Shown here piece by piece: positions 39,995 through 48,732 of a stretch of 64,000 bases of DNA. The stretch lies in contig MU006092.1 of the NCBI GenBank assembly GCA_010093705.1, forward strand, positions 1,258,350-1,322,349. Direction: 5' to 3'. The position numbers and the translations under genes were made by a program. The DNA is from Patellaria atrata CBS 101060 (taxonomy: Eukaryota). The notes below the pieces were generated by a model. That model had not been told where the DNA came from. It did no database searches and saw only the letters and a program-made list of their open reading frames with translations. How positions within the stretch are numbered: position 1 is the first letter of the stretch; each line of letters starts with the position of its first letter.

Positions 39995-40100
39995 GTTAAG
40001 GGTTAAGAGATATATGACCCCATTTTCTCATGCAGCCTCTGTGGTTAGGGGTACATAAACCCTTTCCCTTCCTTCTTCTCCCTTTCTTTTCTTTTTTTCA
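39995..40100 (+). promoter_or_regulatory. Representative cluster module: GTTAA - TGACCC (40015) - TACATAAA (40052) - pyrimidine tract
   Basis: The same layout recurs at TATA-like boxes 39400, 40601, 41139, 41717, 42623, 43354, 43644, 43953, 44742, 45185, 45886, 46516, 47306, 47950 and 48684 (some degenerate). Confidence 0.6.
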
Positions 40101-40229
40101 GTCAAGAGATATTGCATGCAGACTATTGACTTTGCTACTCGTCCCTGAGGTTTGTTCAAATTTGTATTATGACAGCTTGTTCATTTCTGGGTTGAGCCCT
40201 GTAGTTGTGAATATGAGGTGTTTTTTGAC
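40101..40229 (+). ncRNA. Hairpin RNA candidate
   Basis: gtcaagagatatt (40101-40113) pairs over 13 contiguous bp (5 G-U) with ggtgttttttgac (40217-40229); nested gacta/tagtt. Confidence 0.55.
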
Positions 40230-40690
40230 CTTTGTCTTCATTTGGAGGGGAAGTGAACATAGGAAATAGGGGGTTTGGTCTTCTATTAAGCCAGGAGTCA
40301 TGAATATTCTTAGTATAATGCCATGGTATGCAGAGTCAGGATAGGTGTGTGGTGATAAAACTTAGGAGTGGAAGGCGATATGTAACATCACTGTAACGTT
40401 ATCTGCTTATATTTCCTTTTTTTTTTTTTTTTTGTTTTTGAACAACAATTGAAAGTTGGAAACGATGCGGTGCCCACTTGATTCCAGTAGTAAAACAGTT
40501 AGAGAGAGGAGGGAGGTTTCAAAGCGAATGGCTTTATATACGTTTACGTCAATTGGTCGGGTGAGGTATGTCTCGTGCCATCTCCGCTAGCACTGAGGGA
40601 TATAAACCTGCTTTCCCTCTCCATTCCCCTGCCTTCCTCATTACTTCATCCTGAATTGAGAAGCGGAATCGACGTTTGGGGAAGTTCCAA

Positions 40691-40761
40691 CTCCGAAAAG
40701 CCATCGACCTATTCAGTTCGAGCGGAAATTCTTCAACTAGGGATAGTCAGATTGGTCGGAG
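40691..40761 (+). ncRNA. Hairpin RNA candidate
   Basis: ctccga/tcggag enclosing gacctattcagttcga / tcaactagggatagtc. Confidence 0.45.
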
Positions 40762-41198
40762 CCGTCGGATACCGTTTTGGGCGGTATGAGAGTATTTTAG
40801 TGTAGCAAGGCAAACTGTGAATATGGAAGGAGGGTAAGGCGATGATGGTCTTTAGTATCAAGGGGAGATGATGGAGGGGTGCTGGTTATGGTAATGATGC
40901 GTGGTATAAAGCTCGAAAAGGGGTAAGGAATGAGACGAACGCCATGCTTGTACATCCTGGAAATCTCCCAATGTGAGTTTTAATTAAGTACAATCTTGAA
41001 GTGGATTCCTTCGTTGATGATAATATGTTAGTGGAAAGGGAAAACGATAGAAATGCTACAAAGATACTCTATAAAACCAGCCATGTCGAATCGCAGGTGA
41101 CCTCGTCTTGTATTATACCCACAGGTCCCACACTGAGCTATTTAGATACCTCCCACCTCCTTCGCTTTCTTTCCATCTCGAACAGATCAGCAATGGTA

Positions 41199-41335
41199 TG
41201 AGATCCTAAAACAAGAATCCGATGGATGATTTATTCTCGCTCGGACTGGGACTCGGATTCGGATTGGCAGTATGTTCTGGAGAATCCCGATTTTCCACCC
41301 ATATTCACGGGATGACTGGGATTAGGGGGATTTCG
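41199..41335 (+). ncRNA. Hairpin RNA candidate
   Basis: tgagatcct/gggatttcg, aatcc/ggatt, tcggattc/gaatcccga nested. Confidence 0.5.
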
Positions 41336-41390
41336 GTAGATGCAACCTAATATGAGAGCGGTTGCCATGGATATCTGCATCAGAACCCGA

Positions 41391-41510
41391 TAGTGATGAG
41401 TTTCAGATCATGTTTGGAATATCTTATTCGCACAACGTCTTAAAGATCCTTTAAGAATACCGTTTCTCCATCTCTACTTTTTCCAAATAATAGACTCTCC
41501 ACTCATATTA
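41391..41510 (+). ncRNA. Hairpin RNA candidate (second hairpin after the 41139 module)
   Basis: atgagt/actcat, tgtttggaa (41411)/ttccaaata (41481), tcttaaag/ctttaaga. Confidence 0.55.
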
Positions 41511-41781
41511 TTCCAGGCTTAAGAATCAACGGCACTGCCTGTTGTTGGAAGAACTCAAAAGCCTCTTATACTGTATTTATACATCTATTAAGAGGACAGA
41601 GTTAGGAAGGTTTTTGAACTAATGACGATACTACCATATGATTGTGTCAGGAGAGGGTATGGTTATGTCAAGGACCTATATGACCCTTAACGTCCTGCCA
41701 CCCCTAAAAGAAGGAGCATATCAACCTCTTAACCCTCCTCCTCTTCCCTATCTCTTTTTTAAACATAATGACCAAGATAGC

Positions 41782-41934
41782 TACGAATTAGTCTGAACTG
41801 TCCACCATAGCTCCCAGGAAGCATTGTAAGGTCCGAAGATAATCATTATTGGTGGGTATTAGATAAACTGGATCTGCAGGTGCACTAAATATCTCGCTTG
41901 ATTTGCTACTACTGAGAGATGCGGACTATTTGTA
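41782..41934 (+). ncRNA. Structured RNA candidate
   Basis: tacgaattagtctg/cggactatttgta outer stem; tgtccacca/tggtgggta inner stem. Confidence 0.45.
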
Positions 41935-42383
41935 TACAGAACGAAGACAACGAGCATGAATCAAAGGAAACAAATAAAACAACACAGATAGTTAAATGTT
42001 GTGTTAGAAATCTGTTTTGATACAGTTTGACACAAACGTCTCAAGCTAACGTTCCATACCGCTATTTCCACTAGTCAGCATCACATTTACCCGATAGTAA
42101 GCACCACCATCTAACAATGGATATAGAACAAAGTTTCAAGAAGGAGAGAGAGTTTAGAAAGTAGAATGGGTTGGTAATAAGTCCTTTACCACTATTAGAA
42201 TCACGCGAGGATGGGAATGACGGTGAGTCCGTGATGCGGATCACTGAGTTGAAAGATGATGATTATCATTGTCGCTTTCTCTACCTCCTCTAAGTCCTAT
42301 CGACAAGGGACAGGTCGAGGACAACCAGTCCATTAGGCACAAATTCCTAAACCCCAATATATGGGCTTTGATGGGAGCTCTTG

Positions 42384-46048: not shown

Positions 46049-46140
46049 AACATCTAACAGTGATCAAGAAGGTGGAGTTGTAAAAATGTTTAGAAATATA
46101 TGGAATCAACCATCAGAATGCAGTGGTGGTGATGCGTATT

Positions 46141-46245
46141 CCCTTGAAGTAGTGATTAGTCCCATCATCAAGATCGTACCTTCACTCGTCGACTTAATCT
46201 AGAACAGGGAGCCAGAAACACGATGGAAATATTACTACTCTTGGG
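46141..46245 (+). ncRNA. Hairpin RNA candidate (second hairpin after the 45886 module)
   Basis: agtagtgat/attactact and ccatc/gatgg. Confidence 0.45.
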
Positions 46246-46565
46246 TTAGATAGTATTAATCCCTTCCCCACCAGAAAGGAAATATGTTGCTAGTCAAGCT
46301 CCACGAGAGGTCTTCGTAAATATAGTAAAGGAACAACTGAACAAACATGACTAAAACGGGGCCATACCCATAGGATGAGGTCACAATTGCAAACGCATGC
46401 GCAACCATCCCCTCTGACCGTGTCAGTCACTATTTCCAGGGTCGCTGATACCGAAATAGGGGTGCAAATAGGTGACCTCGTAAGTCAAGTGCCTCCATTT
46501 CAGATGGAATACGGGAATTTAAACCTCCTTCCCCCTCTTCATTTTCCGTCTTTTCCTCAGACTTC

Positions 46566-46686
46566 GTATTCTTCCCATTTAACTGCAATGAATTTGTCTA
46601 TTGTGGCTTTCCGGGGCCTGTCTGGTTTTATCAGTGACTTCAATCGATTCCTTTGGAGGAACCAGCGGATGAGGGAAAGGAAGTAC
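46566..46686 (+). ncRNA. Hairpin RNA candidate
   Basis: gtattcttcccatttaactg / cagcggatgagggaaaggaagtac; inner gaattt/cgattc, tattg/cagtg. Confidence 0.4.
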
Positions 46687-46881
46687 AGCTCTCAGAATTC
46701 GAGAAGATGACTTACGAGATTAAGGAGGTAATGAGGTGGGGGGTGTTTGAGGGTAATAGTGACTGGTATCATGAGTGCAGCATTAGTCAATAGATTTGCG
46801 ACGAGCTGAAGAAGTGCATCGTTGAAACCATACTTTGATCCTTATAGTGTAGGGAAACAAGGAGAAACAAGGTCCCGAAAT

Positions 46882-47102
46882 AGGTCTGCGTATTAGAGTC
46901 ATTGCGGAAGAAGAGAACAAAATGAAAATTCTTGCGGAGGTTGCGGACTAGGTTTGCTTTGGAAATTCGATCAGGTTACCGAAACTAAGAACAAGAGAGT
47001 AAACCTGTGAGATTATACCACTACGGTAAAAGGCCGACCTTAATGCCGGTTTTTGGCAGTAAGGCTTATATCTGACAAAACCCAACGCTTAATACCAGAC
47101 TT
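46882..47102 (+). ncRNA. Structured RNA candidate
   Basis: aggtctg-gtatta / taatac-cagactt; inner 11-bp aggtttgcttt/agagtaaacct. Confidence 0.5.
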
Positions 47103-47441
47103 TATACCCATAGAAAGATAGAACCAAGGACGTATGCGACGGAAGCACCTGTGATAGACCTGTGACGATGACATTACAGCGTCTGATCTTTCACGTGCAT
47201 TTACAAATCAACATGCGGATTATCTCACACATCACTGACACCGACTTGGCCGTCAGGGAGATGATCTCATGCCCTAGGTGACAATATTACGGCTCATAGT
47301 TGTGGTATATAAATTCCCTCTTCCTCTTCCTTTTCCACTTTCCTCTCTCTCTCGTCAAGACTTCTTTAACATATGGCCACTGTGTCAAAGAACTCCCTAA
47401 AAGTCGAAACAATTGGCTGTTTCCTGCTATTTTGGCGAAAT

Positions 47442-47536
47442 TCGAGGAGCGTGTGGGAATTGCAATTGGGTGCCCTTGGTGGATCAACAACAAGAGCAAT
47501 ATACCCCCTCCAAAGAGACATTCTTAAGATCCTCGA
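47442..47536 (+). ncRNA. Hairpin RNA candidate
   Basis: tcgagga/tcctcga, gggaat/attctt, ttgg/ccaa, cttg/caag. Confidence 0.4.
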
Positions 47537-48017
47537 GGCATGTATACAACCTGAGTGCAATAATCACCATCACAGCGCCAAGCTGAGTATCACCATCTTG
47601 CCCAGTCTTGTCACATGGACTAGGACTAACTGACTGACAAGAAAGCCGTAAACGAGAAAATGGGTAAAGGGAATAAAACATCTCCAACGATTTTGGACAG
47701 ACGTTTCATTGAATCAAAGCGCGTGTTGCGCTCTGAACGCCTAGCTGTAAGAGAATCTGAGTTTCAAACTTCAAATTCTGAGGAAGATAGGGTTTTAAGT
47801 TGCAACGTTAGATCAAAATATGCGAGTAAGCAGGTGTGATACGCATATAATGAGCTTTTCATGACGTTTATCCTCGCAGGGGCAACCCCTATTCACATCA
47901 TCCACCATGACATCTCATGCATTCTGTCTCCGCAAGTATGATTGATAAGTATATAAAACCTCTTCTTGCCTCTCCTCCTCAACTTCACCACTTCTTCATT
48001 ATTCTATCCGGCATGAG

Positions 48018-48219
48018 TTTTGGACTTCTGGTCAAAAGTTAAAAGAGAGCATTGGAGCTTGCTTCGGAGAGATATCTGATGCTAAACAAGCAACATTGCG
48101 TGGCACTGGTTGGCAAATATCAACCGGAAAAGATTGGTGTTTGTTGATTGTGCCGGCAATAACCCCCAGCAAAGAGACATGGGGAGTACATACTCACACC
48201 CCCTTCCCCAAGTTCAAAA
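48018..48219 (+). ncRNA. Structured RNA candidate
   Basis: ttttggactt/aagttcaaaa outer stem; aacaagca/tgtttgtt and ctggttg/caaccgg inner stems. Confidence 0.5.
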
Positions 48220-48732
48220 AATGGAGTCGGTCAGTTATGAACGAGGAAGCCTAGTATAATAACACGGAGCAGCAGTACGAAAAGGTGATAGACTCCATCA
48301 CAACCCGATATAACCCTATCAATACTTTTCACAACCTACGCCAGATCAAATCAGATCATTCTGGAGGAGAACACCACCGAATAAAGAAATCTTTCACCGT
48401 AGTACACTTGAAACCAGAAAAACCACATACCAAACCACACGAAAAGCTATATCTCCAAATTGAGGAAAAATCCATCTTTGCGCAGAGCTCCGACAACAAT
48501 AATAACATTCAATAGTCCATCCCGGAAACCTAAATATGCTGCAGAATGCGTTGGTATCCGAAGAGCCGGTATAGCCAGCAGAAAGCATCATCGGCACAAA
48601 TTAGTCATGACGGGATTTATAGGAGAGAGGAGGGGAATGCATACATGTCACTTGCTCGTTACATCATTGGGATATTCAGTGGATATATAACATCATAACA
48701 CGATATCTGCCCTTTCCTACGCAGGTTGACCA

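Follow-up and report, generated by a model that had tools for sequence, protein, structure and literature searches.

Head-to-tail promoter units without recognisable genes in a 10-kb tract of Patellaria atrata CBS 101060

Introduction

The DNA analyzed here comprises 64,000 nucleotides (nt) of the fungus Patellaria atrata CBS 101060 (assembly GCA_010093705.1, contig MU006092.1, positions 1,258,350 to 1,322,349 of the forward strand); this whole stretch is referred to as the window, and positions are counted from its first letter. Between 39,340 and 48,985 (about 10 kb) the window holds an array of about 15 head-to-tail units, all of which lie on the + strand and share one promoter design, at distances of 441–905 base pairs (bp) from TATA anchor to TATA anchor. 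A recognisable gene stands behind none of these approximately 15 promoters. The array is situated in a gap (38,699–49,240) without any stop-to-stop frame of at least 150 amino acids (aa), the sole such gap in the window, and the GC content of this tract without open reading frames (ORFs) is 0.41–0.44, compared with about 0.45–0.54 in its flanks.

The core promoter of the units is of a known kind, and unusual is the arrangement, in which about 15 copies without an ORF stand in a row and possess a private upstream element. As a tentative reading on sequence grounds, the array may have arisen by tandem duplication and represent a family of about 15 short RNA polymerase II (Pol II) units, all on the same strand, that would make non-coding RNAs under one regulator.

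Upstream element

Fifteen anchors were set by eye on TATA-like boxes; they comprise the units of an initial annotation plus u0 (39400), u8 (44745) and u14 (48685). The array begins one unit to the left of the range annotated initially and contains two further units which were not listed there. The coordinates given in that annotation were exact in all 19 cases, i.e., in ten of ten pairs of GTYRR and TATA-like box and in nine of nine TGACC-like words, and the distance from GTYRR to the box was 46–54 nt in the ten pairs.

For word counts, 144 TATA-like words outside the array and 20,000 random window positions served as controls. GTYRR was present in its upstream window in 10/15 units, compared with 6.2% of the outside TATA-like words and 10.8% of the random positions, and GTYAA/GTCGA in 9/15 units (2.8% and 4.3%, respectively). 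The exact word TGACC occurred in 7/15 units (2.1% and 2.0%), TGACC-like words in 12/15 (4.9% and 8.7%), and GTYRR together with a TGACC-like word in 8/15. Binomial P values for these upstream words ranged from 4e-7 to 7e-11 and are optimistic, because the word definitions were set after the data had been seen.

A Gibbs search (width 10, region -110 to -12, no positional prior, 20 dinucleotide shuffles as null) recovered the motif de novo, as the initial annotation had led one to expect: it yielded RTGACCYCRT with a score of 148.8 versus 129.8 +/- 3.2 (maximum 136.0) in the shuffles, a difference of about 6 standard deviations (sd), and most of its sites were located at -34 to -47. Alignment of the 15 promoters with MAFFT gave the consensus ..ATGACCCC..(~25 nt)..GGGGTATATAAACCCC..CCTCTTCTTC, and a core pattern of 26 letters matched three units versus 0 in 100 shuffles. 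That the pattern is due to chance or to an over-reading of loose words near AT-rich boxes is hardly credible. GTYRR and the TGACC-like words are indeed loose and were defined after the fact, but the height of the de novo motif above its shuffles, the matches of the 26-letter pattern and the presence of the patterns in no more than 2–6% of the 144 control TATA words refute this explanation at the level of the window.

The concern that the same motif might be equally common before ordinary genes or random TATA words proved unfounded within the 64-kb window, whose ordinary genes lack the design. In a composite scan of both strands, combining upstream motif, TATA block and C/T content, the 14 best + strand sites were all array units, and the best site outside the array (score 19.8) was located at 31691; since the composite model was trained on the array, all that follows from the scan is that the rest of the window lacks the design. 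A TATA-like word with at least 78% pyrimidine over the next 50 nt was detected eight times on the + strand (seven in the array, one at 1473) and not at all on the - strand. A search for relatives with a 25-letter core-promoter pattern led to four loci, all of them low-GC (0.25–0.38) chance matches without upstream words or arrays.

The spacing, described initially as fixed, is constrained and not fixed: in 13 units RTGACCYCRT starts between -34 and -54 (mean -42.1, sd 5.7). The proposed inverted half-site pair GTCAA..TGAC was confirmed, and in 7/9 units with both words the word starts lie 12–14 nt apart. The two words therefore behave like a single bipartite element (GTCA-N8-10-TGAC), whose distance from the TATA box varies by up to 20 nt, or two helical turns. 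Only this paired upstream element, GTYRA-N8-10-TGACC, is array-specific.

TATA boxes and pyrimidine tracts

Core promoters of filamentous ascomycetes usually consist of a TATA box and, behind it, a pyrimidine-rich region reaching as far as the start site (PMC9703631). Mutation of the TATA box in xylP of Penicillium chrysogenum left 8% activity and replacement of the pyrimidine tract 22%, and in Aspergillus transcriptomes pyrimidines are enriched directly upstream of start sites (PMC9703631). The array resembles these promoters in that a TATA-like word, present in 15/15 units, is directly followed by a 20–50-nt tract of about 80–100% C/T on the presumed sense strand; mean C+T amounts to 0.70 at 0 to +20 and to 0.84 at +20 to +40, and u7 and u14 have a weak tract. 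As TATA box and pyrimidine tract form the generic core promoter of filamentous ascomycetes, that half of the presumed grammar is not dedicated, and starts are predicted about 40–55 nt after each TATA. Unlike the xylP case, the array has about 15 such promoters head to tail with no ORF behind them, and a gene downstream is missing in so far as neither an ORF of at least 150 aa nor a coding signal follows. The upstream element of the array is not described in PMC9703631. Of the dedicated transcription factor and TATA-binding protein postulated in the initial annotation, the shared strand-specific module thus speaks for the former, while the TATA and pyrimidine part is generic (PMC9703631).

The flanks of the boxes are also shared. 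On the 5' side they are G-rich, with GGGG, GGGA or GTGG at most 10 nt upstream in 9/15 units versus 8% in the background, and AGGGG at most 10 nt upstream in 4/15; on the 3' side they are C-rich. AGGGG or CCCCT lies within -80 to 0 in 9/15 units versus 17% in the background.

GAT-rich word

A second conserved element was found in the bodies of the units by a Gibbs search of width 14, which yielded a GAT-rich, partly palindromic word, ~RGTGATGAnnnTATCA, with a score of 198.4 versus 186.8 +/- 3.5 (maximum 192.5) in 12 resamplings. The freely chosen site fell at +239 to +332 from the TATA box in 12/15 units; all 15 units have the word in this interval, u4 only after a 235-nt repeat insertion is discounted. 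The 60 nt before it are purine-rich (0.62 versus 0.51). Its likely place is in the 3' part or at the end of a predicted RNA of a few hundred nt. The elements of each unit are compiled in Table 1.

Several other roles of the word were considered and rejected. It resembles box C (RUGAUGA) of box C/D small nucleolar RNAs in about five units, while by eye no CUGA box D was seen 3' of it in u0, u3, u4 and u5, and Rfam was silent. Fungal 5' splice donors usually have G at +5, which GTGATG lacks. Convergent promoters giving rise to double-stranded RNA were discarded as well, TATA-like words occurring near the GAT-rich word in 4/15 units on the + strand and in 1/15 on the - strand (backgrounds 0.17 and 0.16).

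Table 1. Units of the array, all on the + strand, with the positions of their elements in the window.
Unit	Positions	TATA anchor	Upstream words	Sequence at TATA-like box	CT tract	GAT-rich word	Remarks
u0	39340..39719	39400	GTGACCCTTG 39346		present	39702	outside the range of the initial annotation
u1	39992..40368	40052	GTTAA 40002; ATGACCCCAT 40014	GGGGTACATAAACC 40048	45 nt	40351	
u2	40541..40858	40601	ACGTCAA 40546; no RTGACCYCRT match	TATAAACC 40601	present	40841	second copy of GAT-rich word near 40889
u3	41080..41409	41140	GTCGA 41085; GTGACCTCGT 41097	TATTTAGA 41139 (degenerate)	present	41392	
u4	41658..42272	41718	GTCAA 41667; ATGACCCTTA 41680	ATATCAACC 41718	present	42255	body split by high-copy repeat ~41861-42095
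u5	42563..42910	42623	ACGTCAA 42568; TGGTCCTCAT ~42576	GGGGTACATAAACC 42619	present	42893	
u6	43295..43641	43355	GTTAA 43306; ATGGTCCCTA 43318	GGTATATAAGTCCCC 43351	present	43624	
u7	43894..44264	43954	ACGTCAA 43905; ACGGTCCCAT 43920	TATATCAACC 43953	weak	44247	followed by high-copy repeat 44280-44560
u8	44685..45027	44745	TTGACTTCAT 44711	GGGGTATATGAGTCCCC 44739	present	45010	not listed in the initial annotation
u9	45126..45442	45186	GTTAA 45134; ATGACCCCTA 45147	TATATATTCC 45185	present	45425	
u10	45827..46145	45887	GTCGA 45832; GTGACCCCAT 45843	GGGGGTATAAAAAC 45881	present	46128	
u11	46458..46775	46518	GTGACCTCGT 46472	ATTTAAACC 46517 (degenerate)	present	46758	high-copy repeat 47033-47077
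u12	47248..47596	47308	GTCAG 47252; ATGATCTCAT 47261	GGTATATAAATTCCC 47304	50 nt	47579	86-aa frame 47373-47633
u13	47892..48301	47952	ATGACATCTC 47907	TATATAAAACC 47950	present	48284	
u14	48625..48984	48685	no upstream motif	ATATATAAC 48684	poor	GGTGATGCGTATCA 48967	weakest unit

Unit bodies and their coding potential

The bodies of the units are saturated by divergence and are neither coding-like nor structured-RNA-like. That the intervening bases are unrelated, as noted initially, agrees with blastn-short comparisons between units, which returned nothing beyond words of 15–20 nt. Column information amounts to 0.123 bit in the bodies (+60 to +200) versus 0.129 bit in random DNA, as opposed to 0.425 bit at -12 to +12 and about 0.8–1.6 bit across the RTGACCYCRT columns. 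Global alignment of the bodies scored slightly above shuffles (-22.9 versus -26.7), which may reflect common composition and not homology. All units show the same succession of base composition, with a T/G-rich part at +60 to +140, a purine-rich part at +180 to +270 and then the GAT-rich word. A width-10 Gibbs search and a test of 9-mer sharing gave no further body motif above the null, and a comparison for stretches of the window complementary to the bodies yielded only two short matches at chance level.

Searches for structured RNA were likewise negative. In Rfam nothing in the array reached the gathering score, and the three rows obtained (E 0.58–4.4 at a cut-off of E 5) were at chance level. 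Fold z-scores of the + strand bodies lay between -0.98 and +2.29, hence without a fold signal below shuffles, and a sliding fold scan over 522 windows had a mean z of -0.23 with few outliers, which did not recur per unit. The idea that the CT tract pairs with the purine-rich zone in a long hairpin was rejected, as no fold signal was found for it.

The bodies were also examined for coding signals. Chi-square values for 3-base periodicity were 6.2 in 270-nt and 6.4 in 120-nt windows with a null of about 6, compared with 23.0 and 14.3 in known coding sequence of the window. Codon log-odds of the array ORFs were negative on both strands (+ strand, -0.071; - strand, -0.060), whereas real genes reached +0.045 to +0.273, and peptide similarity between units was no higher on the + than on the - strand (top 23.1 versus 21.9 bits). 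The Pfam cut-off was reached by 0/14 short array ORFs, and 9/9 array ORFs were absent from a collection of 15 billion proteins, in which a 397-aa neighbour from the same genome was present. The longest ORF of the array, the 86-aa frame of u12, shared no words with proteins of 47–151 aa. When up to two canonical introns were allowed, no consistent gene model linking the first ATG to the motif frame emerged.

Some features of the bodies nevertheless hint at coding, in the form of small protein genes of one family that has diverged strongly or mostly died, with products of about 70–90 aa that would have a hydrophobic start, a charged middle, a D/H/Y-rich motif and a hydrophobic tail. In one + frame the GAT-rich word reads as akin D/N-x-D...Y/H peptides, such as VDDCYH, KDDDYHC, GDSDNHYC, ADDDNGHY, GNSDWYH and RGDAYH; GAT/GAC, TAT/TAC and CAT/CAC are exchanged within it, and its length differences are multiples of three. 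Unit u12 alone has a single open frame (86 aa, 47373–47633) which opens with the first ATG 3' of the CT tract and takes in the conserved word. Periodicity is raised in u0 (12.3) and u11 (11.2), the first ATG lies at most 25 nt from the tract end in 10/15 units (P ~0.02), and the order of base composition is the same throughout. Such a family could resemble a fast-evolving cluster of secreted proteins or effectors, in which most copies are broken or have unmodelled introns and u12, perhaps also u0 and u11, may still code. We regard this explanation, the main rival of the non-coding reading, as unlikely. On average the bodies show no codon periodicity above the null, neither codon log-odds nor peptide similarity distinguishes the two strands, the intron models are inconsistent, and the stop-to-stop frames round the motif, 15 to about 90 codons long, are by our estimate near chance. 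Indels in threes are expected without coding because the GAT-rich word is trinucleotide-like. Neither the protein collection, which holds the 397-aa neighbour and 0/9 array ORFs, nor the word comparison for u12 provided a counterpart, and neutral decay would not erase the bodies yet spare the promoter words.

A variant of the coding explanation, in which each unit encodes a micropeptide of 15–45 aa round the D-x-D...Y/H motif, translated from a short ORF some 200 nt downstream of the RNA start, is very unlikely. An in-frame ATG without a stop between it and the motif exists in 8/15 units (u0, u4, u5, u9, u10, u11, u12, u14), where about one in four would be expected from composition (an estimate; P ~0.015), and in u10 and u11 the start of the motif ORF coincides with the stop codon of the first ORF or is no more than 3 nt away from it. 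In the remaining 7/15 units, however, a stop but no ATG precedes the motif, the lengths after the motif range without pattern from about 2 to 37 residues, Pfam matches and a codon signal are lacking, and upstream ATGs would need to be bypassed.

Two bodies display peculiarities of their own: u2 (40949–40975) and u13 (48512–48538) share, 3' of their GAT-rich words and with no other unit, a 27-nt stretch GT(A/C)CATCC(T/C)GGAAA(T/C)CT..., which reads LVHPGNLPM and IVHPGNLNM in one frame. The body of u8 contains a 16-nt tandem repeat, TCTCGTTGTGCTGTAC, in 4.9 copies (44841–44918).

Copy number and inserted repeats

Word depth in two sequencing runs that behave as DNA of the same genome was even, at about 300–450, across the stretch outside three repeat insertions (in u4, u7 and u11; Table 1), and the units are therefore single-copy in the genome (at 85% likeness). 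A third run contained no more than small pieces of the stretch. The three inserted segments reached 10–100 times the single-copy level and thus represent high-copy dispersed repeats. Indices of repeat-induced point mutation (RIP) were near those of the rest of the window (TpA/ApT 0.82, (CpA+TpG)/(ApC+GpT) 1.15), and these normal values speak against a divergence of the bodies driven by RIP.

These data bear on the view that the array is a DNA-level element and contains no genes at all, be it a satellite of old age, a series of binding sites through which factors act on neighbour genes, or decayed copies akin to long-terminal-repeat (LTR) elements or terminal-repeat retrotransposons in miniature (TRIM). 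The head-to-tail repeat layout, the lack of a nameable product and the accumulated repeat insertions would be in keeping with such an element. It is nonetheless very improbable, since the conserved pieces, all of them on one strand, are exactly those that make up a directional Pol II promoter, the units are single-copy at 85% likeness, unlike a transposon family, and the RIP signature is missing; moreover, a primer-binding site complementary to the 3' end of the window's tRNA-Met, the one tRNA tried, had 0 matches of 8–12 nt in the array.

The repeat at 44280–44560 holds a 97-bp unit repeated twice (44331–44523) with an internal inverted repeat and has the look of a miniature inverted-repeat transposable element. 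Between u1 and u2, at 40417–40439, a run of 23 T (90% pure) was noted, at which the contigs of both DNA runs break.

Origin of the array and comparison with known systems

The array consists of motifs that recur on one strand, lacks a coding or fold signal and is single-copy; from its sequence we infer transcription of the units, their control by one factor and selection on their promoters. A recurring, strand-specific module amid saturated divergence argues for selection on this module and for a common sequence-specific factor. As the promoter words survive while the rest is erased, and as the layout is directional and same-stranded, a tandem duplication of a short Pol II unit with long-term selection on the promoters would be the best explanation, and such a descent explains the common layout without a special promoter class.

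Under this reading of the array as a duplicated family of non-coding RNA units, a short Pol II unit would have been tandemly duplicated in a Dothideomycete, and selection would have kept the promoter of each copy. The bipartite upstream element would consist of GTYRA (often ACGTCAA) about 50 nt and RTGACCYCRT about 34–54 nt upstream of TATA, and its inverted GTCA/TGAC half-sites would suit a dimeric sequence-specific factor. The TATA box, with a G-rich 5' and a C-rich 3' flank, would be followed by the 20–50-nt pyrimidine tract, which may set the start about 40–55 nt further on. The bodies would be non-coding and, diverged to saturation, would have in common only the purine-rich zone and the GAT-rich word 239–332 nt after TATA, and the product of each unit would be a non-coding RNA of a few hundred nt.

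Besides the coding-like features of the bodies already described, further points weigh against this scenario. The word definitions and the 15 anchors were picked after the sequence had been viewed, the TATA box is degenerate in u3, u4, u7 and u11, the upstream motif RTGACCYCRT is absent in 2/15 units (u2, u14), and no relative of the array was found in searches with the core pattern and, in metagenome contigs, with the 397-aa neighbour.

A more far-reaching version, which we consider decidedly unlikely, would see in the array about 15 autonomous mini-genes with selection on the promoter alone and bodies free to change, whose product would be either the act of transcription itself or diverse short RNAs (guides, decoys, small-RNA precursors), and in which a dimeric factor would read GTCA-N8-10-TGAC. 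Such an array would correspond in function, though not by descent, to the nematode 21U-RNA clusters. In the 21U-RNA units of Caenorhabditis elegans, the Ruby motif stands upstream at a set distance and the downstream sequence is unconstrained. The array is like these units in comprising many autonomous mini-units with a common upstream motif, and unlike them in that its units measure about 600 bp, possess TATA box and CT tract, occur in a fungus and are devoid of the Ruby core; with 0 occurrences of CTGTTTCA on either strand of the array, the analogy to the Ruby motif drawn initially had to be abandoned.

Small nuclear RNA (snRNA) genes have a base-exact spacing between their upstream or proximal sequence element (USE/PSE) and the TATA box. 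The array shares with such promoters the combination of an upstream element and a TATA box, but its spacing is not base-exact (RTGACCYCRT at -34 to -54, sd 5.7; GTYRR at 46–54 nt), and the T-runs inside the CT tract would stop RNA polymerase III. The USE-TATA analogy of the initial annotation therefore fails, as the upstream motif floats by 20 nt and Rfam finds neither an snRNA nor another family behind the promoters.

The cAMP response element (CRE) TGACGTCA, bound by basic leucine zipper (bZIP) factors, and the stress response element (STRE, AGGGG) are sites of stress-induced fungal promoters. Going by this motif knowledge, the TATA box together with CRE-like and AGGGG words suggests an inducible expression of the units, be it in stress or development. 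RTGACCYCRT differs from CRE at its centre, the full CRE is present in 0/15 units and its half-sites ACGTCA/TGACGT in 3/15, and the half-sites of the array, 8–10 nt apart, are unlike the build of bZIP sites. To name the family of the putative factor would be a guess.

Fungi also possess tandem clusters of co-regulated, diverged small genes, such as secreted effectors and mig2 of Ustilago maydis, in which the promoters of direct tandem paralogues are alike and their bodies have diverged past recognition. The ORFs of these clusters are intact, unlike the bodies of the array, which are without coding signal. In the literature on fungal tandem arrays, narrow word searches, which are no proof, turned up no such array of ORF-less promoter units. 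A cluster for ribosomally synthesized and post-translationally modified peptides was rejected, since there are no modifying enzymes among the products of the neighbouring genes, which comprise amidase, aldehyde dehydrogenase, SH3-protein and TRP-like channel genes. Precursors of lipopeptide pheromones were likewise dismissed, as by eye no C-terminal CaaX was seen in the motif frames; no systematic scan was made.

If the units of this presumed non-coding RNA family are transcribed, the array is a natural experiment with 15 copies of one promoter, in which time has erased all but the working parts. It would then offer a map of the bases and spacings that a Dothideomycete promoter needs, a target for finding its factor, and a set of non-coding RNAs under common regulation from DNA in which no annotated protein was found. 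Were the units the remains of small protein genes, the case would be an ordinary one; the TATA and pyrimidine part is textbook under either reading.

Neighbouring genes and minor observations

The long ORFs of the window carry domains of fungal type, namely those of a TRP-like channel, GH115, UDP-glucose pyrophosphorylase, aldehyde dehydrogenase and amidase, and the UDP-glucose pyrophosphorylase ORF has 94–95% identity to proteins of Botryosphaeria, Neofusicoccum and Delitschia, which places the fungus among the Dothideomycetes. The gene adjoining the array (37418–38611, - strand) encodes the 397-aa protein mentioned above, which is rich in charged residues and without a Pfam domain; an identical sequence forms a single-member cluster in NCBI/UniRef, and metagenome contigs gave no relative. 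A possible degenerate extra unit was noticed to the left of u0, at 38875–38917, with GGTGAT, CATGACTTCAACCC and, 12 nt on, TATAAAC, and without a pyrimidine tract; it falls in the upstream region of this opposite-strand gene. The sole match of Rfam and ARAGORN in the window is a tRNA-Met gene (anticodon CAT) at 10045–10116 on the - strand. Assembly gaps of exactly 100 N each are located at 14507–14606 and 54772–54871.

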